This document shows positions 5,159-52,173 of a DNA stretch of 64,000 nt, one piece after another. The position numbers were made by a program, and so were the translations under genes. Origin of the DNA: an uncultured Bacilli bacterium (GTDB lineage Bacteria; Bacillota_I; Bacilli_A; RF39; UBA660); the NCBI GenBank assembly GCA_934130005.1, contig CAKOXD010000001.1, positions 78,897 through 142,896 on the forward strand, given 5' to 3'. The notes below the pieces were generated by a model, which worked only from the letters and a program-made list of their open reading frames with translations, searched no databases and was not told the origin of the DNA. How positions within the stretch are numbered: position 1 is the stretch's first letter; each line of letters begins with the position of its first letter.

Positions 5159-5575
5159 TTAATTTTTTTTAGTAATTACTTTTATCTTAATTTTTTGATT
5201 TATATAATTAATCATATAATTTACAATTTTATCAACTTCTAAAACATTTACTGGTTTTGAATTTTCTATTATTTTTTTTATTTTTTCTTCAGTTAAATTA
5301 ATTATTATAATTTCTGATTTTAAATCTATATATGAATACTTTGGATTTTCAGTAGCTATAAGTATTAAATTTATAAATCTATCATAATTGTTATCCTCAG
5401 ATATTTCAAATAATTTATTAATATCTTGATATTTTTTTAGCATATCAAAAGATTCCATTATTTTTTTCAATTCATGCATATAACCTTTCAAGTATTCAAA
5501 ACTAACATCATGATAACAATAACCATATTTATATAATAATGTAATATATAACTTAGTAAATTCTATTTCTTCCAC
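5159..5575 (-). CDS. Hypothetical protein
   Basis: 138-aa ORF between miaB and dnaJ. No motif recognised. Confidence 0.45.
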   Translation of the reverse strand: MEEIEFTKLYITLLYKYGYCYHDVSFEYLKGYMHELKKIMESFDMLKKYQDINKLFEISEDNNYDRFINLILIATENPKYSYIDLKSEIIIINLTEEKIKKIIENSKPVNVLEVDKIVNYMINYINQKIKIKVITKKN

Positions 5576-5656
5576 TTAAATCACCTTTATCATTATATGT
5601 TTTATTATATGAAATTTTTATCGAATTTTGTAAAAAAAAGATAATTTTAATTATCT

Positions 5657-6766
5657 TTATAAATATTTATTTATTTTATTTATTTCATTATTTGGATCTA
5701 AGTTAGTACTATTCAATTCTTCAAATAATTTTTTTTGTTCTTTTGTAATTTTTTTAGGAATTATTATATTTAAAATTACATACATATCTCCTTTATTATT
5801 AGAGTTTACATTAGTAATTCCTTTTCCTTTTAACCTATGTCTATCACCTGATAAACTTCCTGCTGGTATTGTTAGTTTTACATTTCCATATAATGTAGGT
5901 ATATCTTTTTTACAGCCTAAAACTGCTTCTGTTATCGTAATTGGAAGCTCTATATAAACATCATTTTCTTCTCTTTTAAATAGAGGATGTTCTTTTACAA
6001 CAAATTCTAAATAAACATCTCCATTTTCTCCTCCATTGCTTCCCATTTCTCCTTTACCTTTTAGTCTAAGTCTATTTCCAGTATCAACACCAGCTGGTAT
6101 CTTAACTTCAATTGTTTTATTTTCTTTTATTTTACCTAAACCGCGACATTTAGGACATTTTCTATCAAAGGTATAACCATCTCCACCACATGTATGACAT
6201 GTAGTTCTTGATTGAAAAACGCCAAACATAGTTCTTTGTTCTACAACTTCCATTCCACTACCATTACAAGTTGGACATGTTTTTTTAGAATGACCACCAA
6301 GTCCATTACATTCCGTACATTCTGTATAAACGTCCATTTTTATGTCTTTTTCACAACCAAAAACTGCTTCCTCAAATGTTAGATTTATTCTCATAAGTGA
6401 ATCATTACCACGTCTTGCTCTATTTGATGATTTTCTAGAACCACCAAATCCAAAACTACTACCAAATAAATCTCCAAATATATCGGAAAAATCAAAATCT
6501 CCGAAATCAAATCCAGAAGCACCTGCACTACCATTTTGAAATGCAGCATGTCCATATCTATCATATTGACTTCTTTTTTCTTTATCAGAAAGCACAGCAT
6601 ATGCTTCTTGTATTTCTTTAAATTTTGCTTCAGCATCCGGTTCTTTTGAAACATCAGGGTGATATTTTTTAGCTAATTTACGAAATGCTGATTTTATATC
6701 TGCATCGCTAGCATTTTTATCAACACCTAAAACTTCATAATAATCTTTTTTATTCACATACTTCAC
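5657..6766 (-). CDS. dnaJ: Chaperone DnaJ
   Basis: J-domain start KDYYEVLGV with HPD. A G/F-rich region and four CxxCxGxG zinc-finger repeats are present. Confidence 0.95.
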
Positions 6767-8571
6767 CTTCTTTTTGTTTTATATAAATTTTTAAATTCAT
6801 CAATTGTCTCATCAAACATTTTAATAGCACTTTCTATTACATCACTTTTAGTAACATCAACACCAGCTACTTTAAGTTCATTAACAGGGGTATCACTACC
6901 ACCTAATGTTAAAAACTTCAAATATTTTTCTAAGGCATTTTCTTTTTTATTTACAATACCATCTACAATGTAGCATGCACAAGATAATCCAATAGCGTAT
7001 TTATAAACATAAAAATCATAATAGAAATGAGGAACTCTCATCCATTCATATCTAATTAAATCATCAACGACTACATTATCCCCAAAATATTTTTTATTTA
7101 ATTTATAATATTCATTCGATAATAATTCATTAGTTAAAACTTTGCCTTGTTCTTTTATAGCATGCATATCACGTTCAAACTCAGCAAACATAACTTGTCT
7201 ATAAATTGTTGTTCTAAAAAGTTCCATCATATTATTTAATATATATAATTTTTCTTCTTTATCTTCACTATTTTCAAGTAAATAATGATTTAACAACATT
7301 TCATTAACAGTAGAAGCAACTTCTGCTACAAATAATCTATAACTTGAATTATTATATGTATTATTTTTACATGAATAATATGTATGCATTGAATGTCCTA
7401 ATTCATGAGCAAGGGTTGAAACATCATTTAATTTTCCTTCAAAGTTTAAGAGTACGAATGGGTTTGTATCATAAAATCCACTAGAATAAGCTCCGCCTCT
7501 TTTTCCAACATTGTTATAGACATCTATCCATCTTTCATCAAATGCTCTATTTATATTTTTAATATAATCTTCACCTAAAATACTTAATGCTTTTATAACA
7601 GTATTTTTTGCATCTTCAAATGTATATTCTTTATCATATTTTTTTATTAATTCAACATAATTATCATATAAATGTAATTCTTCTAAATTTAATATTTCCT
7701 TTTTTACATCAAAATATTTATACACTATGTCCATATTTTTATTTATTGTATCAACTAGATTATTATATACATCAGGTGTTATATTATCTCTAAACAAAGA
7801 AGCTTCTAAACTACTATTAAAGTTTTTCATTTTAGCTATACTTGTTAAATATTCTACATTTCCTTTAAAAGTGGTTGAAATAGTATTTTTAAAATTAGAG
7901 TATGTACTAAATAAAAGTTCAAATGCATTTTTTCTAACTTTTCTATCTTCTGATTGTAAAAATACTGTATAATTACTTTCTGTAAGTTCAACATCTTTTC
8001 CTGTTTCATCTTTAACAATGCCAAATTTCATATCAGAATCTGTTAATGCTTCATATGCCTCTTCAGGTATATCAAGTACTTTGGATAAAATAGATAACAT
8101 CTTTTCTTGGTCTTCTGTTAATTTATGATTTTGGTGTCTATAAAATTGTTGTAAATTAAATCTATATTTTTCTAATTCTTTATTTTGTTTTATATATTCT
8201 TCTACAGTTTCGTATGATTTTTCATACATTTCTGAATCTACAAATGAAGACTCTTCACTATATTTTGTAAGTAAATCATCTATTAATCCTTTATATTCTT
8301 GATATTTTGTATTTGTTGTATCTGAATCAAAATTCAAATGAGCATAATAATATAACTTATATAATTTTCTTGTTAAATCATCATCAAATTCTAAATATTC
8401 TAATAGAGAATCTGCACTATCTAGCAATTTTCCTTTGAAATTTTTTACTTTTTCCATTTCTTTACTTACAATTTTTATATTTTCAAAGAATTCTTTTTCA
8501 GTTTTAAATATTGTAGTTAAATCCCATTTATATCTTTCATCTATTTCATTTCTTGTTTTTTGTTTTTCCAT
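6763..8571 (-). CDS. pepF: Oligoendopeptidase F (M3B family)
   Basis: 602 aa. HELGHSMH zinc motif and M3-type architecture. It overlaps the dnaJ start by 4 nt. Confidence 0.85.
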
Positions 8572-8628
8572 TTTTTTCTCCTTTAATAGTGATAAAGTTC
8601 TAGATAACTAGAACTTCACCATAAATTA

Positions 8629-10458
8629 TTATTTTTCTTCAAATTCAGCATCTACTACTGTATCATCTTTTTTATCATTATTAGTTGAATCATTAGATTC
8701 ATTATTTTCATTTGCTTCTTTTGCTTTTGCAGCTTCTTCATATACTTTAGTTGCAAATGCCATAGCTGTTTCTTGTAATGCATCTTTTTTAGATTTAATA
8801 TCTTCAATGTTATCTTTTTCCATTGCATCTTTTAATTCTTTTATTTGTTTTTCAGCTTTTTCTTTATCTTCACTACTAATTTTATCTCCTAAATCTTTAA
8901 TTGATTTTTCAGTTTGGAATACTAATTGTTCTGCTTCATTTTTAACTTCTGCTTCATTTTTTTTCTTTTCGTCTGCTTCACGATTAGCTTCGGCTTCTTT
9001 TACCATTTTATCAATTTCATCATCTGATAAATTAGTAGAAGATGTTATAGTAATTGATTGTTCTTTTCCAGTACCTAAATCTTTTGCTTTAACGTTTACT
9101 ATACCATTAGCATCTATATCAAAAGTAACTTCAATTTGTGGTACTCCTCTTGGTGCAGCAGGTATATTTGTAAGTTGGAATCTACCTAAAGTTTTATTAT
9201 CACTTGCCATTGGTCTTTCACCTTGTAAAACATGTATATCAACAGCTGGTTGATTATCTGCAGCAGTTGAGAATACTTGACTCTTACTAGTTGGAATTGT
9301 TGTATTTCTTGGAATTAATACTGTACATACATTTCCCATTGTTTCAATACCAAGTGAAAGTGGTGTAACGTCTAATAATACTATGTCATCTACTTCTCCT
9401 TGAAGTACTCCACCTTGAATTGCAGCTCCCATAGCAACTACTTCATCTGGGTTAACTCCTTTTGATGGTTCTTTTCCTAATTCATTTTTAATTAAATCAA
9501 CGACTTTTGGTATACGAGTAGAACCACCAACTAATAATATTTTATCTATGTCATTTTTAGTTAAATTAGCATCTTTTAAAGCTTTTCTTACTGGTTCTAA
9601 AGTAGAATCTAATAAATCACCTATTAAATCTTCAAATTTTGCTTTTGTTAAATTTACTGATAAATGAAGTGGTCCATTTTCACCTTGAGTAATAAATGGA
9701 ATAGAGATTTCAGTTGAAGACATTCCACTTAAATCTTTTTTAGCCTTTTCAGCTGCATCTTTAACTCTTTGCATAGCCATTTTATCATTAGTTAAATCAA
9801 TACCATTTTCACGTTTAAATTCACTAACTAAATAATCCATAATTCTTTGATCGAAGTCATCTCCACCTAAATGGTTATTACCACTTGTTGATAATACTTC
9901 AAATACACCATCACCTAATTCAAGAATTGAAACGTCAAATGTTCCTCCTCCTAAATCGTAAACTAATACTTTTTCATTTTTATCTTGTTTATCAAGTCCA
10001 TAAGCAAGTGCTGCAGCAGTTGGTTCATTAATAATTCTTTCAACTTCTAATCCTGCAATTTTACCAGCATTTTTAGTTGCTTGTCTTTGTGAATCATTAA
10101 AATATGCTGGAACAGTTATAACTGCTTTTGTAACTTTTTCACCAAGATATGCTTCAGCTGTATTTTTAAGATCAGTTAAAATCATAGCAGATATTTCTTC
10201 TGGAGTATAATCTTTTCCATTTACATGAACTTTTTCACTAGTTCCCATTTTTCTTTTAATTGAATATACTACATCTGGATTTGTAATCATTTGGTTTTTA
10301 GCTTTTATACCAACGATTGTTTCTCCATTTTTAAATGCTACTACTGATGGAGTAGTACGACTTCCTTCTGGATTAGCTATTACTTTAGCTTCTCCACCTT
10401 CATATACACATACACAACTATTTGTTGTACCTAAATCTATACCTATTGTTTTACTCAT
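8629..10458 (-). CDS. dnaK: Chaperone DnaK (Hsp70)
   Basis: [10 protein letters not shown] and DLGGGTFD motifs, with a C-terminal EEK tail. The start is probably the MSK at 10458. The ORF could extend to 10467. Confidence 0.95.
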
Positions 10459-18919: not shown

Positions 18920-19894
18920 TTATTCTAGTATTTTTCCTATTATACTTGTTTTATCTTGTAAACCATTTAAATATTCTATTGTTTTCATTTTCTTTTTGCC
19001 TTCTATTTGCAATTCAGTAATAACAATTTCACCATTACTTACTTTTACCCCAATTCCGTCTTCATAAATATTTAAAATTTGTCCATTGATTTTAAAAGGA
19101 TCAGCATAACTAGATATTCTAGAAGACCATATTTTCATTCTTTTACCTTCAAATATAGCATATGCACCTGGCCATGAATTAAGTCCTCTTATTTGATTAT
19201 ATACTTGTTTTGTAGTTTTATTAAAATCAATCTTTTCGTCTTCTTTACTTATGTTTTTAGCATATGTTGCTTCATCATTATTTTGAGGTGTTCTCTTAGC
19301 TGTACCATTTATTATACTAGGTAATACTTCAAGTAATAAATCAGTTCCTAAAGCACTTAATTTATCATGTAATGTAGAAGCAGTATCAGTGTCTTCTATT
19401 TCTATTTCTCTTTCTTCAATTATATCTCCTTCATCCATTCTAGGATTCATATGCATAATTGTAATTCCTGTTTTTTTATACCCGTCTATAATAGCATGGT
19501 GTATAGGTGCTCCTCCTCTTAATTTTGGAAGAAGTGATGCATGTACATTAATACATCCATATTTAGGATATACTAAAAGTTCTCTTGGTATTATTTGACC
19601 ATATGCACATGTAATTATCAAATTTGGATGTAATGAAACTACATCTTGCCATTCTTCCTTTATTTTTTCTGGCTGTAACACTAAGATAAGATTATCGTTT
19701 GCAAATTTTTTTACTGGAGATGCTGTTAAAACACCATTTCTACCAACTTTTTTATCTGGTTGTGTAACAACAGCCCTTACATTATAGTTTTTAGTTAATG
19801 CTTCAAGTATTGGTACACTAAATTCTGGTGTTCCCATAAAAACAATTCTAACTTCTTCATCTACATTAATTTTATCTATATCATAATTTTCCAT
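18920..19894 (-). CDS. fmt: Methionyl-tRNA formyltransferase
   Basis: N-terminal RIVFMGTPEFSVPIL. A formyltransferase core with HASLLP is present, plus the Fmt C-terminal domain. Confidence 0.9.
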   Translation of the reverse strand: MENYDIDKINVDEEVRIVFMGTPEFSVPILEALTKNYNVRAVVTQPDKKVGRNGVLTASPVKKFANDNLILVLQPEKIKEEWQDVVSLHPNLIITCAYGQIIPRELLVYPKYGCINVHASLLPKLRGGAPIHHAIIDGYKKTGITIMHMNPRMDEGDIIEEREIEIEDTDTASTLHDKLSALGTDLLLEVLPSIINGTAKRTPQNNDEATYAKNISKEDEKIDFNKTTKQVYNQIRGLNSWPGAYAIFEGKRMKIWSSRISSYADPFKINGQILNIYEDGIGVKVSNGEIVITELQIEGKKKMKTIEYLNGLQDKTSIIGKILE

Positions 19895-19986
19895 TTTATC
19901 ACCATATATATTCTATCATAAAACACAAAAAAACAAAAGGGAGACTTTTGTTTAATCGAGAATATTACTCGAGGGTATATTTATAT

Positions 19987-48464: not shown

Positions 48465-48541
48465 GGACCTTTAGCTCAGTTGGTTAGAGCATCCGGCTCA
48501 TAACCGGACGGTCGTAGGTTCGAGTCCTACAAGGTCCACCA
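48465..48541 (+). tRNA. tRNA with CAU anticodon, probably tRNA-Ile2 (lysidine); not an initiator
   Basis: GGACCTTTAGCTCAGTTGGTTAGAGC...CTCATAA...GGTTCGAGTCC...AAGGTCCACCA. The 1:72 pair is fully matched, so it is not an initiator. The sequence is close to Bacillus tRNA-Ile(CAU). Confidence 0.7.
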
Positions 48542-48548
48542 TTTTAAT

Positions 48549-48632
48549 GCAGGTGTGGCGAAATTGGCAGACGCGCTAGACTTAGGATCTAGTGGTTAAT
48601 CCGTGGGGGTTCAAGTCCCTTCACCTGCACCA
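48549..48632 (+). tRNA. tRNA-Leu (anticodon UAG)
   Basis: GCAGGTGTGGCGAAATTGGCAGACGC...CTTAGGA...a long variable arm...GGTTCAAGTCC...CACCTGCACCA. Confidence 0.85.
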
Positions 48633-48645
48633 TTCATAAAAAAAT

Positions 48646-48670
48646 TAACCGGAAAGACGGTTTTTTATTT
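48646..48670 (+). terminator. Weak hairpin plus T-run between tRNA-Leu and tRNA-Gln
   Basis: AACCG-GAAAGA-CGGTT followed by TTTTTTATTTT. Confidence 0.3.
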
Positions 48671-48684
48671 TATCCTTTTTAAAT

Positions 48685-48758
48685 TGTCCTATAGCCAAGT
48701 GGTAAGGCAGTGGGCTCTGACCCCATCATCGTTAGTTCGAATCTAACTAGGACAACCA
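48685..48758 (+). tRNA. tRNA-Gln (anticodon CUG)
   Basis: TGTCCTATAGCCAAGTGGTAAGGC...anticodon loop CTCTGAC...GTTCGAATC...TAGGACAACCA. Confidence 0.75.
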
Positions 48759-48759
48759 C

Positions 48760-48833
48760 GCCGATTTAGTTTAATGGTAAAACAAATCCCTCGTAATGAT
48801 TAGATGTAAGTTCGATTCTTACATTCGGCACCA
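48760..48833 (+). tRNA. tRNA-Thr (anticodon CGU)
   Basis: GCCGATTTAGTTTAATGGTAAAAC...loop CTCGTAA...GTAAGTTCGATTCTTAC-ATTCGGCACCA. There is one acceptor mismatch and one anticodon-stem mismatch. Confidence 0.6.
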
Positions 48834-48834
48834 G

Positions 48835-48909
48835 ATTGATTAACACTCGAACTTTTTCGAGATAAATATAAAAACTACTCTCAAATTAAATTGAAAGTAG
48901 TTTTATTTT
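48835..48909 (+). repeat. Direct repeat copy 1 (75 bp, contains a terminator-like hairpin)
   Basis: ATTGATTAACACTCGAACTTTTTCGAGATAAATATAAAAACTACTCTCAAATTAAATTGAAAGTAGTTTTATTTT is nearly identical to 49891-49965. Internal hairpins are CTCGAA-CTTTT-TCGAG and AAAACTACT...AGTAGTTTT followed by a T-run. Confidence 0.85.
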
Positions 48910-48976
48910 GTAAATTTAATAACACACATGAAAATTGACATAATCATTATTTGTATATGATAAATATTATATATTT

Positions 48977-49642
48977 TTAATCATTTACCTTATTAAATAA
49001 ACTATTCTTTATGTATAATATGTCTTCTATGGATTTTCCTATATTAAATGTTCCATTTCCTACTGGGTAAAAAACTGAATAACATTTATATTTTTTATTA
49101 TTAATAATTTTTTCAAATTGTTTTTTTCTACACTGAGAAACAGATATTTTTTCATTTAGTACAATCGAACTAACTTGATTACCAAACAATACTATTACTT
49201 TTGGATCAATAATTTCAATTTCTTTTTCTAATAAATGTAGATATTCTTTGTAAATATTATCTGGTAATGGTCTTGCGTCTATTTGCGTGCACTTTCCTAA
49301 ATTAGTTATAAAATATTTATGTTTTTTTACATTCTCATACACAATACTTGCAAACTCTTCAGTCCAATCAGCACCTTTAATATTTTTAATTTTATTATAT
49401 ATATCTTTATCAAGCATTCCGAGTTCATAAAAAAAACTCCAAATGTTTTTAGTTCCTATCCAAGGAGATTTTAATCCTTTCCAATTCTTGGAAGATGCAA
49501 TATTTCTTCTTGTTGGATTCATAAATACAAAGCAAATATCGGGATTTTTATCACATCCGCCATTATAGATAGAATCTAATTCTTTAGCTCCATACTTTTG
49601 TTGCAATTTATCATACTCTTTAGTTAAATTATTTAAAGTCAT
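48977..49642 (-). CDS. Uracil-DNA glycosylase superfamily protein (family 4/5-like fold)
   Basis: Its motifs line up with family-4 UDG blocks. FVFMNPTRRN aligns with the (V)GEAPG block. KYFITNLGKCTQIDARPLPD aligns with VYITNIVKCRPP...PLP. VIVLFGNQVSS aligns with IIVPLGAVA. The likely start is the ATG at 49642, with GAGGAG 6 nt upstream. The ORF track uses a TTG at 49648. Confidence 0.7.
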   Translation of the reverse strand: MTLNNLTKEYDKLQQKYGAKELDSIYNGGCDKNPDICFVFMNPTRRNIASSKNWKGLKSPWIGTKNIWSFFYELGMLDKDIYNKIKNIKGADWTEEFASIVYENVKKHKYFITNLGKCTQIDARPLPDNIYKEYLHLLEKEIEIIDPKVIVLFGNQVSSIVLNEKISVSQCRKKQFEKIINNKKYKCYSVFYPVGNGTFNIGKSIEDILYIKNSLFNKVND

Positions 49643-49727
49643 ATACAACTCCTCTGTTACCTTTTTCTTTTAATTTTCTTTCATAATATCTGATTTTTGC
49701 TCTGTTTGTTGTTGTTAATAAATACAT
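49629..49727 (-). CDS. Small basic ORF (32 aa) with a strong Shine-Dalgarno sequence, overlapping the UDG-like start
   Basis: GGAGG lies 10 nt upstream of the ATG at 49725-49727. The product is MYLLTTTNRAKIRYYERKLKEKGNRGVVYDFK. Its stop overlaps the UDG-like start region. Confidence 0.3.
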   Translation of the reverse strand: MYLLTTTNRAKIRYYERKLKEKGNRGVVYDFK

Positions 49728-49890
49728 AATTTTTATACCTCCATTCTGTATTTAATTATACTATATTCTGACCACGTTTACTAGTTAATTATTTTTTAAT
49801 TTATATTTTTCTGATATACTTGTAACAGTTAATTTTATTACTAAATCTTTCTTTTGTTCAAAGAGTTTACTTCTTCCTTTAAGGCATCAA

Positions 49891-49965
49891 ATTGATTAAC
49901 ACTCGAACTTTTTCGAGATAATATAAAAACTACTCTCAAAATTAAATTGAAAGTAGTTTTATTTT
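49891..49965 (+). repeat. Direct repeat copy 2 (75 bp)
   Basis: Matches 48835-48909 except for two single-base indels. Confidence 0.85.
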
Positions 49966-50111
49966 TACAGCAAACTTATATCTACTATAATCAATAAACT
50001 CATCATTAAAAACTTTAACAAGAATTAATTCAAGTATTAGTGAATTGTTTTAAATTATAAAATATGATATTATATATTCATTAATTATTACAAGTAAAGG
50101 AAAGATTATTT

Positions 50112-51038
50112 ATGAAAATTGATTATTTTTGTTTTAGTATTCCAAGTCTATATCAAAATGATTATATTTTAAATAAAAAAGATGATGAAAATGATATTTG
50201 GATAAAAAATAAAGAAAAAGAATTAATGGACTCAGCTAGAGAAAATAATATGCTGATAGTATTTGATAGAACAACTAAAAAATTTTATATGAATAATAAA
50301 GAATTTGATGTCAAAGGCAAGGTTATATTTCCTAGAAGTTTTATTCTTTATGAAGAAGAACTTTTAAAAAAATTAGAAGAGAATGGTGCAATATCTATTC
50401 AAACAATGAAAGATATTGAAAACATAGAAAATTGGCCTCAAAAAATTCAACCTATTTATAGAAAAGTAATTGAAACAACATATAAAGATTTCAAACTCAA
50501 TAATGAATATTATAAATCTCTTTTTAAAAACATATTTTTTAAAACTGCTAAAAAAACTAATACTCATTGTACTTTAAAATCCTTTGGATTTATAGATATA
50601 TGCGGTGAAAAAATCTTTTTTACAAAACCAACATTATGGGATGTATCTTCAGATGACAATATTTTTCTTTCTGAAACATTTGAATCTATTATAGATATAG
50701 AAAATGACATGGATTGCAAAGAATATAGAGCCTTTGTTATAAATAATAATTTATTAAGCATTTCTAGATCATATATTGATTATCCAACAGAAATACCTAA
50801 TGAAGTTAAAACATTTATTAAAGAACAAATAGAAAAAACCTCTTCTATAAATGATTTCCCTAACAGTTATGTTTTAGATGTGGGACAAATGATTATAGAT
50901 AATAAAGAAGTAATTGACATTATAGAATATAATCAAATAACTTCATCTGGATTAGAAGTATGTAATCTTTTAGTTGATAACTTAATAAATTATAATAAAT
51001 CTAAAAGAAAAGAAAAAATATTAATTAAAAAAAATTAA
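50112..51038 (+). CDS. ATP-grasp fold protein of unknown substrate
   Basis: 308 aa with ATP-grasp-like spacing. There is a Lys block (IFFKTAKK), an E/R block (EYRAFVINNNLLSISRSY) and an acidic Mg block (YVLDVGQMIIDNKEVIDIIEYN). A terminator hairpin (AAACATAT-AAT-ATGTTT plus T-run) follows at 51075-51100. Confidence 0.55.
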   Translation: MKIDYFCFSIPSLYQNDYILNKKDDENDIWIKNKEKELMDSARENNMLIVFDRTTKKFYMNNKEFDVKGKVIFPRSFILYEEELLKKLEENGAISIQTMKDIENIENWPQKIQPIYRKVIETTYKDFKLNNEYYKSLFKNIFFKTAKKTNTHCTLKSFGFIDICGEKIFFTKPTLWDVSSDDNIFLSETFESIIDIENDMDCKEYRAFVINNNLLSISRSYIDYPTEIPNEVKTFIKEQIEKTSSINDFPNSYVLDVGQMIIDNKEVIDIIEYNQITSSGLEVCNLLVDNLINYNKSKRKEKILIKKN

Positions 51039-51125
51039 CTTTCAAATTTTTAAATTTAAAAACATATAATATGTTTTTTTATTATAAAAAAGAATATTAT
51101 TTATAAATGAAACATATAATTTACC

Positions 51126-51623
51126 ATGAAAACAATTATACACGATTTAGATAATGTTAAAACAAAAGAAAATTCAAATAATATCACAATATTAGAAGAT
51201 AAATTAGTAAATAATTGTATTGGATGTTTTAATTGTTGGACAAAAACACCAATGAATTGTATACATAATGATAATTTAAAAAAAACATCTAAAAAATTAT
51301 TAGAATCTGATACATTAATAATTGTAAGTAAAAACACAAATGGTACTTATAGTTCACATGTAAAAAAAATACTAGAAAGGAATATTGGATTTGTATATCC
51401 CTACTTTGTAATAAGAAAAAATGAAATACATCATAAATTAAGAAAAAATGAAACAAAAAATTTTATATTGATAATTTATGGAAAAACAACAAATAATGAA
51501 AAAAAACTATTACAAGATTTAGCACTTAGAAATTCCTATAATTTTAACTTAGAAATTAAAAATATCATATTTTGTAAAAATCAAAGTGAAGCTAGGAGAA
51601 AACTATATGAACACATATATTAA
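51126..51623 (+). CDS. Iron-sulfur-flavoprotein-like protein (Isf/NADPH-FMN-reductase-like, divergent N-terminus)
   Basis: CIGCFNCWTKTPMNC Cys cluster followed by an SDTLIIVSKNTNGTYSSHVKKILER block, as in Isf-type flavoproteins. The usual N-terminal SGSPR phosphate-binding loop is not evident. Confidence 0.5.
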   Translation: MKTIIHDLDNVKTKENSNNITILEDKLVNNCIGCFNCWTKTPMNCIHNDNLKKTSKKLLESDTLIIVSKNTNGTYSSHVKKILERNIGFVYPYFVIRKNEIHHKLRKNETKNFILIIYGKTTNNEKKLLQDLALRNSYNFNLEIKNIIFCKNQSEARRKLYEHIY

Positions 51624-52173
51624 CTGTAGTCCAAAATTAAAAAATAGTAATTCTGAATACTTTATTAATTTGATTAAAAATAATAAAGATACAATAAATT
51701 ATATTTATAAAGATAACATTAAAAATATAAAAGAAAATATAAAAAATAGTAACAATATAATATTTGTATATCCCCTATATATAGATACAATTCCATCAAA
51801 ATTAATTGAGATAATAGAAAATTTAGATAGTAATTTACTCAATAAAAAAAATTGTTATATTATATGTAATTGTGGATTTTTAGAACCATCTCATAATAAT
51901 CTTTCTATAAAAACAATGGAAAATTGGATTGCAAAAAATAATGGTATTTTTATGGGATATTTAAGTATAGGAAGCGGAGAAATAATTGGAATAACAAAAA
52001 GAAATAAATTATTAAAATTTTTCTGTAAAGATTTTTTAAAAAAAATAAATAAATTTAAAAAGAATTTAGATAACAATAATAAAGTTTATCTAACAACAAA
52101 TATAAAATGGCTAAATAAAAAATTTTTTTGTATTATATGTAATAAATTCTTTAAAAAAAGAATACAAAATTGA
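51607..52173 (+). CDS. Flavodoxin-like NAD(P)H-dependent FMN reductase family protein
   Basis: N-terminal INCSPKLKNSNSEYF (phosphate-binding SPK motif). IIFVYPLYIDTIPSKLIEIIENL is typical of the FMN_red/flavodoxin-like fold. The start is taken at the ATG at 51607 after AGGAGAAAACTAT. The ORF track begins at 51586. The reading frame overlaps the preceding gene by 17 nt. Confidence 0.6.
   Translation: MNTYINCSPKLKNSNSEYFINLIKNNKDTINYIYKDNIKNIKENIKNSNNIIFVYPLYIDTIPSKLIEIIENLDSNLLNKKNCYIICNCGFLEPSHNNLSIKTMENWIAKNNGIFMGYLSIGSGEIIGITKRNKLLKFFCKDFLKKINKFKKNLDNNNKVYLTTNIKWLNKKFFCIICNKFFKKRIQN

Follow-up and report, generated by a model that had tools for sequence, protein, structure and literature searches.

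A recombinase-less glycosylase-gene cassette behind tRNA-Thr shares its ends with putative serine-recombinase elements of uncultured low-GC gut Bacilli

How does a single gene of the uracil-DNA glycosylase (UDG) superfamily come to lie between two nearly identical repeats, directly behind a tRNA gene and with no integrase nearby? The question is raised by a 64-kb stretch of DNA from an uncultured Bacilli bacterium (hereafter the window; contig CAKOXD010000001.1, positions 78,897 to 142,896), a bacterial chromosome segment of 19-30% GC with the majority of its genes on the minus strand. Here the genes queA-ruvB-ruvA-cysS (minus strand) are followed by the four-tRNA cluster of the initial annotation, which we identify as Met(CAT), Leu(TAG), Gln(CTG) and Thr(CGT), on the plus strand at 48465..48833 (ARAGORN; Rfam tRNA scores of 56-76 bits). 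The same annotation described 75-bp direct repeats behind tRNA-Thr (48760-48833) and regarded the enclosed segment as an inserted cassette or a site-specific duplication. In our reading, positions 48834-49890 probably represent a non-autonomous cassette derived from a family of small integrative mobilizable elements (IMEs) of uncultured low-GC gut Bacilli. The idea of a cassette thus holds, but the repeats seem to be neither an insertion scar nor a duplication; instead, they appear to be the left ends of two adjoining tandem elements. A simple tandem duplication was considered and rejected.

The repeats themselves are real and slightly longer than described. Positions 48827-48909 match 49883-49965 in three blocks (48827-48865/49883-49921, 39 nt at 95% identity; 48865-48890/49920-49945; 48883-48909/49939-49965). 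Across the originally reported 75 nt, two 1-nt indels are the sole differences, and the similarity reaches 8 nt further, into the 3′ end of tRNA-Thr (GGCACCAG versus GGCATCAA). A 31-nt core of the repeat is present in exactly two copies in the window and in none of 100 shuffles. Each copy consists of a small hairpin (CUCGAA..UUCGAG) and a 14-bp terminator hairpin flanked by A- and T-runs, and the folding z-scores (−4.4 and −4.1) bear out the terminator-like hairpins noted earlier. Both terminators were called on the minus strand in a terminator scan; a T-run follows each stem on the plus strand as well, and the terminators look bidirectional. Written with the end of the preceding gene, the repeat core reads CCA/G-ATTGATTGATACTCGAACTTTTCGAG and is followed by the terminator.

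What this core represents becomes clearer from its distribution. A scan with a degenerate 27-nt version of the core, ATTGATTRAYACTCGAACTTTT(N)CGAG, returned 21 stretches in 20 GTDB species-representative genomes (one or two per genome) and 29 metagenome stretches; loci are referred to below by L numbers. All these genomes are metagenome-assembled and labelled uncultured Bacilli, Bacillales, Tenericutes or Mycoplasmatota, apart from two probably mis-binned contigs. The viral collection contained no match, so there is no evidence for a phage origin, and Rfam has no family for either the repeat or the pseudo-tRNA unit described below. In every case the motif begins one base past a CCA end, be it that of a real tRNA or transfer-messenger RNA gene (collectively, t(m)RNA) or that of a conserved pseudo-tRNA 3′ end. 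Among real genes, the motif follows tRNA-Leu(CAA), Leu(TAG), Thr(CGT), Thr(GGT), Arg(CCG), Cys(GCA) and tmRNA and, in a variant form, Gly(GCC). About 10 nt past the motif there is a terminator of one of a few types; that of the window is of "class 1" (aaaactactctcaaattaaattgaaagtagtttt), which is usually followed by a promoter-like block (..acacacttgcaaattgacat..). This distribution bears directly on the possibility that the repeat is a dispersed terminator element akin to repetitive extragenic palindromes, two copies of which flank the UDG gene by chance. Such an element could well include a strong bidirectional terminator like the one in the repeat. However, the exact core has only one or two copies per genome in the 20 genomes, and two in the 64 kb of the window, all of them behind a t(m)RNA CCA or a pseudo-tRNA end, whereas the seven other tRNA genes of the window lack the motif. 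At this depth, copy number and invariable placement refute the generic terminator element, and we give it almost no likelihood.

The identity of the core is suggested by loci in which it is contiguous with a terminator, a small open reading frame (ORF) and a gene for a large serine recombinase (LSR): L040, L057, L074-76, L078-80 and L082-86, with decayed or partial copies of the same linkage in L019, L024 and L039. In this arrangement, a "class 2" terminator following the motif leads to a ribosome-binding site, an ORF of about 90 codons (..ICRFAC..), a protein of 592-648 aa and a relaxase gene. The large protein of L040 has the Pfam domains Resolvase, Recombinase and Zn_ribbon_recom, and the next protein is Mob_Pre. 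Two elements are seen in full (L040 5128-9740 and L057 5689-10097), each with the small ORF, the LSR, the Mob_Pre relaxase and one further ORF between the motif and a pseudo-tRNA end; no other recombinase-like ORF, tyrosine recombinase included, was found in either. Complete elements are 4.4-4.6 kb long and consist of the left end, the ~90-aa ORF, an LSR of about 615 aa, a MobV relaxase, one to four cargo ORFs and the right end. The left end is the 27-nt motif with its TCGAAC hairpin, followed by the terminator. The right end begins with an outward-facing extended −10 promoter (TGnTATAAT or TGnTATACT) and continues through a hairpin and a T-arm-like hairpin to an acceptor-like tail, ..gCACCAG, immediately after which comes the next motif. 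With both an LSR and a relaxase between two defined ends, the complete members qualify as a family of IMEs. Three sampled LSR homologues (80, 71 and 61% identity) all reside in tandem arrays at junctions of a right end (P) with a left end (P′). Two of the three arrays begin directly after a tRNA gene and the third begins beyond the stretch fetched: in L078, tRNA-Thr(CGT) precedes three units, in L082-86 tRNA-Gly(GCC) precedes at least two, and in L074-76 one unit adjoins another. The boundaries in all three are a pseudo-tRNA end followed by a motif variant. The repeat core of the window thus appears to be the conserved left end of IMEs of about 4.5 kb. Genes carried in arrays (L078, L074, L046, L034, L016) encode an AbiEii toxin, PycTM, NUDIX hydrolases, a thymidylate-kinase-like protein, DUF488-N3a, an EamA transporter and helix-turn-helix regulators, a set that resembles a defence or nucleotide-metabolism island.

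The segment in the window has a right end as well, which went unnoticed in the initial annotation. The left end of the UDG cassette (P′, 48834..48909, plus strand) corresponds to the left repeat. It includes the 27-nt motif (48835-48861), which is conserved in 50 other loci, the small hairpin (48846-48851/48856-48861) and the bidirectional terminator (48871-48904). Behind it, at 48910..48976 on the plus strand, lies the promoter-like block typical of this type of left end (TTGACA..TGATAAAT), directed into the 3′ end of the UDG gene; the corresponding block "..aatttaRaaacacacttgcaaattgacat.." follows the same terminator in L016, L018, L027, L030, L033, L045 and L060 and occurs also within an LSR element (L074 8100-8140). 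The right end (P, 49810..49890, plus strand), just before the right repeat, has an extended −10-like sequence (TGATATACT), a first hairpin, a T-arm-like hairpin and the acceptor-like end GGCATCAA. It is homologous to the right ends of L040, L027, L035 and L020. The nearest of these are the ends of L027, L035 and L040, and it belongs to the same subfamily as the end of L040, an LSR-bearing element. With nhmmer it was detected at E = 0.24 and was the sole plus-strand match of that rank in the window. Both ends of the segment therefore match the ends of LSR-bearing elements.

These comparisons also speak to a classical explanation, a tyrosine-integrase island. According to it, an element inserted within tRNA-Thr carrying a replacement for the 3′ part of the gene, the right repeat is the displaced original 3′ end with its trailer, and the integrase was later deleted. 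A weak similarity does extend back through the T-arm (GTTCGATTCTTACATTCGGCACCA versus GTTTACTTCTTCCTTTAAGGCATCA), and such events do occur in these genomes: L065 contains a true displaced 3′ half of tRNA-Leu, starting from the anticodon loop, and serves as a positive control. The element in question is a different one, situated in the anticodon loop of tRNA-Leu(CAA) at 6227-6620 of the reverse complement of the stored locus, which is the motif strand; it came with a tRNA-Leu(CAA) gene of its own that differs in sequence, and the displaced half that it left is followed by the motif and the flank of the UDG cassette. In the window, however, the sequence preceding the right repeat is far closer to right ends found at other tRNA genes (L027, L035, L040) than to tRNA-Thr. 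In L066, a same-species locus considered below, the pseudo-ends at recent insertions have only GCACCAG in common with the 3′ half of tRNA-Thr, and the complete elements have no tyrosine recombinase that we could find. Islands of the Islander type have a displaced copy of the tRNA 3′ part, from the anticodon or T loop to the end, at their distal boundary; here the match to tRNA-Thr does not extend beyond GCACCA. This explanation is largely refuted and, in our view, extremely unlikely.

Where, then, is the recombinase? A tblastn search of all 64 kb found neither the recombinase of the family nor a relaxase, in agreement with the integrase-free segment described initially, and between the cassette ends there are only the UDG gene and the stub of a Ham1-like gene. 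Because no recombinase or relaxase is encoded, we class the unit as a derivative rather than as an IME. It has the make-up of a cis-mobilizable element (CIME), in which both parental ends are kept and the recombination and transfer genes are lost, with a right end that has partly decayed. The missing integrase is likely accounted for by the complete relatives, which have the same two ends and encode an LSR and a MobV relaxase. Decay is visible at several points. The right end of the cassette carries CATCAA and a 3-nt gap in the T-arm-like hairpin, and within the species there is a 7-nt right-end deletion in L001 and L007 and an altered right repeat, ACTTGAACTTTTCCAA, in L003-L005. The two repeat copies of the window share variants (AAC, T5) not found in the other genomes, which points to sibling ends or gene conversion.

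If these units were inserted site-specifically, their boundaries should be precise, and several pairs of loci allow this to be examined. In L049 and L053, the UDG cassette lies between tRNA-Leu(CAA) and dapF. L014 is 98.6% identical to this locus from 6 nt before the motif onward, but the sequence ahead of that point is a pseudo-tRNA end with a 2.3-kb unit. In L055, which has tRNA-Leu upstream, the match to this unit starts 7 nt before the motif of the unit. The 2.3-kb unit was therefore gained or lost exactly at CACCAG/ATTGATT. L053 and L034, with flanks 97-99% identical, differ only in that the UDG gene with its stub (880 bp) in the former is replaced by a DUF488-N3a gene (723 bp) in the latter; the terminator on one side and the decayed right end on the other are common to both. 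Turnover is seen at the site of the window, too. L066 comes from the same species (CysS 99%, flanks 98.1-98.5%) and has two extra recombinase-less cassettes, 1.6 kb in total (reverse complement 7893-9493), exactly between tRNA-Thr and the UDG cassette, corresponding to window site 48834. One of them contains a 79-aa ORF and the other a 153-aa Cys-rich ORF and a variant left end, TGAAGAATCTGTTCTAAC; the latter cassette is 88% identical at the nucleotide level to one in a tmRNA-linked array elsewhere. The UDG cassette likewise has a counterpart at another tRNA gene, with 90% nucleotide identity over 1028 bp after tRNA-Leu(CAA) in another species. CysS identities are 98-100% within the species and 80% or less beyond it (the exact CysS sequence of the window itself gave no match); since the loci of the two species share no housekeeping gene, this gap is an indirect argument for their divergence. 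The arrangement at the site is thus polymorphic among relatives: besides L066, the nearest other species (L067-L070, CysS 79%) lack the motif and have other genes between the tRNA cluster and a conserved dCMP deaminase gene. An empty site with a single repeat copy and no UDG gene, which the initial annotation had proposed to look for, was not seen, and all eight of the same-species contigs that cover the site carry the cassette; same-species contigs from the CysS variants P0274 and P0275 end at the tRNA cluster and are not informative on the site.

Taken together, the comparisons confine the exchange rather tightly. Homology between same-species contigs begins 6-7 nt before ATTGATT (L049/L055 against L014; L066 against the window), and the left-end variants diverge from about +7. 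Judging from these limits, the crossover must lie within the 12-bp CACCAGATTGAT (48829-48840), which lies within the junction core GCACCAG/ATTGAT formed by the last bases of tRNA-Thr and the first bases of the element (48828..48840, plus strand). No long target duplication is seen, and a short stretch common to all junctions delimits the exchange, as would be expected of LSR attachment sites. Across loci, the observations thus comprise the anatomy of the ends, eight kinds of t(m)RNA target, precise breakpoints, polar insertion beside the tRNA, cassettes that recur at different t(m)RNA genes (the UDG cassette at two) and turnover within a species.

Part of this pattern could have arisen with no site-specific recombinase at all. 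The motif-terminator and pseudo-tRNA modules might act as portable homology, shuffled by RecA-dependent exchange after uptake or conjugation, or by unequal crossing-over. The AAC and T5 variants shared by the two window copies are lineage-specific, as gene conversion or local duplication would predict; the swap of UDG for DUF488 between L053 and L034 is bounded by conserved ends; and the cassettes have no recombinase. On the other hand, every junction has its breakpoint in the same 6-12 bp despite 80-100 bp of homology on offer, and insertions are always polar, beside the tRNA. Moreover, identical ends are found on LSR elements of organisms with housekeeping proteins that share only 51-66% identity with those of the window. 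We consider homologous shuffling unlikely as the sole explanation, but a serious alternative for the exchange of cassettes.

Another explanation is prompted by the pseudo-tRNA ends themselves. An extended −10 promoter and a hairpin precede nearly every one of them (window 49810-49890, L040 9655-9740, L027 400-482), and the junction of such an end with the motif looks like a complete small transcription unit: promoter, tRNA-like RNA of about 75 nt, trailer and terminator. Such a unit might have a regulatory role that spans the circular junction, or it might imitate a tRNA gene. One could go further and propose that the right repeat simply belongs to a small-RNA gene, a paralogue of the tRNA-Thr 3′ region with a promoter, a ~75-nt RNA, a 27-nt trailer and a terminator, in which case the repeat would be the trailer and terminator common to two RNA genes. 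In nearly all pseudo-ends, whatever their subfamily, the extended −10 indeed precedes the CCA-like end by about 70-80 nt, the T-arm-like stem shows covariation from one subfamily to the next (AAAGTT/AACTTT, AGAAGT/ACTTCT, GTGG/CCAC, CGTG/CACG), and the unit of L040 folds well (z = −3.65). However, the unit of the window folds no better than shuffled sequences (z = −1.8) and decays within the species, the covariation could come from the T-arms of different tRNAs, Rfam gives no match, and the polar insertions are left unexplained. As a rival to insertion, a small-RNA gene is very unlikely; as an addition, it would be compatible with mobile elements, the RNA being a by-product or a regulator of the attachment site.

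What mechanism would produce such loci? Tentatively, and as a possibility rather than a probability, we propose a tRNA-anchored, integron-like capture of genes by LSRs in low-GC gut Bacilli. The single-gene, recombinase-less cassettes would carry a complete attP in imitation of a tRNA gene end, with a promoter, a pseudo-tRNA, an inverted T-loop motif and a terminator. A multi-tRNA-targeting LSR supplied in trans by compact LSR-MobV elements would capture, stack and exchange such cassettes behind the CCA of t(m)RNA genes, with a leftover left end acting as a landing pad. The more modest reading given at the outset, which we consider probable, has elements that sit left end first directly after the t(m)RNA CCA. 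The LSR would recombine the junction of pseudo-tRNA and motif of a circular element (attP) with the t(m)RNA 3′ end, and the LSR of a complete element would move two-ended cassettes lacking a recombinase in trans, as circles, much like CIMEs or psiSCC units, the pseudo-elements of the staphylococcal cassette chromosome (SCC) group. Newcomers would insert next to the tRNA and push older elements outward, giving rise to arrays with a pseudo-tRNA end and a motif at each internal boundary, and the left end left by an earlier element may form part of the target of the next. The window would then be read as tRNA-Thr(CGT), the UDG cassette and the solo left end of an older element. A few features of the ends offer leads to how both sites might be recognized. 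Read on the opposite strand, the motif includes the T-loop sequence GTTCGAGT; in the pseudo-ends, AAGTTGT is found at a constant distance from the junction, and AAAAGTT is present in both arms of the proposed attP. The distance from the T-loop-like GTT to the junction is 29 nt in pseudo-ends and 25 nt in real tRNAs. In serine integrases, the attP half-sites are longer and the attB half-sites shorter, and the two spacings may recall this difference, although only as a weak lead by analogy.

Several points weigh against the reading as a mobile cassette. The global dyad symmetry of the proposed attP is not significant (9.96 of 26 matches, as against 9.70 ± 0.61 for shuffled queries). A canonical LSR recombines no pair of sites other than attP and attB, and stacking beside a tRNA that already bears a left end would need a hybrid site, although a hybrid target is known for SCC elements. 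The acceptor end is not invariant either: in tRNA-Cys (L028) and one pseudo-end (L062), CACCAG is replaced by CTCCAG. The footprints would, moreover, look no different if cassettes were exchanged by homologous recombination between the conserved ends. As to the window, the LSR is absent from it, neither an excised circle nor an empty junction was found for the UDG cassette, and the degeneration of its right end and of the right repeat suggests that the cassette is probably no longer mobile.

What did the cassette bring in? The gene on the minus strand (48977..49642) encodes a divergent protein of 221 aa whose UDG-superfamily membership, proposed from the sequence at the outset, is well founded: it scores 37.2 bits against Pfam PF03167 (cutoff 24.3), and its AlphaFold2 model (pLDDT 95.9) has the UDG fold. 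Foldseek matched the model to family-4 UDGs, TDG/MUG and UdgX with TM-scores of 0.6-0.7 and probability 1.0; the protein thus shares its α/β fold with families 4 (the Fe-S UDGa) and 2 (MUG/TDG) and with UdgX, yet identity to them is only 11-19%. Its C-terminal half aligns to family-4 UDGs. Membership in that family was nonetheless ruled out by scores far below the cutoffs of the family-4 models (TIGR00758, 36.4 bits against 125.3; NF040953, 32.6 against 250) and by missing cysteines: in the family alignment three of the four positions lack Cys and only the KC cysteine is retained, as the first reading of the protein had suggested. The family is small (346 representative clusters), and its conserved motifs are F(M/I)NPT (motif 1), PWIGT, YITN..KC and (Y/F)PVG(N/R)G (motif 2). 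Asn-Pro in motif 1 is typical of MUG, TDG and SMUG and is shared by the protein of the window. Distant members of the family have four cysteines (CxxC near the N-terminus, KC after YITN and PC before YFPVGRG) with a spacing unlike that of family 4, and the clade of the window appears to have lost three of the four family cysteines.

The 32-aa ORF at 49629..49727 (minus strand), which overlaps the start of the UDG gene, does exist as described, but it is a remnant, the 5′ stub of a deleted gene. Residues 2-23 of this ORF share 82% identity with residues 3-24 of a 211-aa Ham1-like protein (a non-canonical NTP pyrophosphatase of ITPase type) from L008, whose intact gene lies directly upstream of UDG; the DNA of the two loci aligns on either side of a gap of about 540 bp. 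Because orf32 matches the N-terminus of this protein, with about 540 bp deleted, the ancestral cargo was a Ham1-like and UDG gene pair with its own promoter. The promoter and ribosome-binding site of orf32 now lead into the UDG gene; a promoter-like site, TTAACT-17-TATAGT, was located upstream of both by consensus scan (49760..49788, minus strand). In L008 the pair belongs to a different setting (5353-10073), in which Ham1-like, UDG, a 151-aa ORF, a SocA_Panacea-domain protein and a 526-aa LSR, 27% identical to that of L040, are flanked on either side by a fragment of a penicillin-binding-protein gene; UDG is thus cargo of an unrelated serine-recombinase element as well. In L011 it is found among RhuM-domain genes. 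Neither PHROGs nor PADLOC has a match for the UDG protein or orf32, and we therefore do not claim a defence role for UDG. For the neighbouring genes, too, there was nothing beyond weak matches in PHROGs for the R2K protein discussed below and one flavodoxin-like protein, and in PADLOC for DUF488.

Beyond the cassette, we read the right repeat (49891..49965, plus strand; motif 49891-49917, terminator 49926-49960) as a left end (P′) that stands alone and stems from an older element. Downstream of 49965 in the window, no second right end was detected with a profile of pseudo-tRNA ends. The region 49964..52173 (plus strand), tentatively its cargo or a variable region of unproven membership, has a strong promoter (49964-49991, 11 of 12 consensus matches), an R2K-type ATP-grasp gene (50112-51038) and two flavodoxin/FMN-reductase-like genes (51126-52173), assigned by Pfam and all on the plus strand. 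The genes at 49966-52173 run counter to the strand bias of their surroundings (GC skew is positive at 50-52 kb), and this stretch may be cargo of the older element. On the other side of the cassette, the cysS-linked cluster of L067-L070 consists only of tRNA-Met and tRNA-Leu(TAG) and ends in a native terminator, and in the window tRNA-Gln and tRNA-Thr (48685-48833) follow the Met/Leu terminator with no obvious promoter of their own. For these two reasons the tRNA-Gln/tRNA-Thr pair may itself have been acquired. Elsewhere in the window, the trailer of tRNA-Glu(TTC) (19880-19986, minus strand) reads CCA/atataaatataccCTCGAGtaatattCTCGAttaaac followed by a terminator and bears a faint likeness to the motif, with CTCGA at the same distance from CCA; this could be a very old left end or chance.

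How does this compare with known systems? The unit of the window lies in tandem with related elements at a tRNA 3′ end and has complete relatives with a recombinase and a relaxase, just as in the tandem accretion of CIMEs, IMEs and integrative and conjugative elements in Firmicutes (PMC5704250). The same review describes serine-recombinase IMEs as inserting within dispensable genes, the repeats being very short, and assigns tRNA 3′ ends to tyrosine integrases (Guedon et al. 2017, PMC5704250). Here, in contrast, the complete members have only an LSR, the CCA end of many t(m)RNA genes is used, and many of the units are single-gene ones of about 1 kb. What appears to be new relative to known accretion is the use of an LSR, insertion at the CCA end without duplication of a tRNA half, at least eight t(m)RNA targets and an attP like a miniature tRNA transcription unit, together with the many single-gene cassettes. 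A second parallel is provided by the SCCmec and psiSCC elements of staphylococci, in which CcrAB LSRs act at the 3′ end of one conserved gene, rlmH/orfX, and recombinase-less units delimited by integration-site repeats are possibly moved in trans. Those repeats are about 15-20 bp long and the elements span tens of kilobases; unlike the elements described here, they have no pseudo-target with its own promoter and terminator, and the target is not a t(m)RNA gene. Integron cassettes offer an analogy only: they, too, form arrays of mostly single-gene, recombinase-less units with one recombination site each and a preferred anchor position. Here, though, the anchor is a tRNA gene, the units have their own promoters and terminators, and no IntI, attI or attC was seen in the loci read, so that we do not claim membership. 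The tycheposons of Prochlorococcus are likewise cargo elements at several tRNA and tmRNA genes, with newcomers pushing older elements outward, remnants building the island and variability highest beside the tRNA (Hackl et al., bioRxiv 10.1101/2020.12.28.424599). Of these, 474 of 501 use tyrosine recombinases, and partial tRNA copies flank them; the present elements differ in having an LSR, no duplication of a tRNA half and far smaller units. Finally, in a survey of serine-integrase islands, 14 of 297 were placed at t(m)RNA genes (Mageeney et al. 2020, PMC7192596), a use that its authors note "has not been reported previously" and call unproven; the survey described neither a family nor the anatomy of attachment sites nor derivatives in the form of cassettes.

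For the window itself the practical consequences are small. Its segment is best read as a fixed, decaying relic, the repeated ends of which would now serve the neighbouring genes as terminators and promoters. For the family as a whole the implications are broader. tRNA and tmRNA genes are classic targets of tyrosine integrases, whereas here a compact LSR-MobV family appears to insert at the CCA of at least eight t(m)RNA genes, leaving the gene unsplit, and to have spawned recombinase-less cassettes of 0.7-1.1 kb that vary from strain to strain within one species. Should the LSR indeed act on these ends, the natural target of this serine integrase would be a near-universal RNA-gene end, which would make it of interest for genome engineering, and annotators would gain a rule for delimiting integrase-less islands. 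It would also explain how accessory genes, such as those for UDG, DUF488, AbiEii, PycTM and NUDIX proteins, are exchanged in the very small, streamlined genomes of these gut Bacilli.

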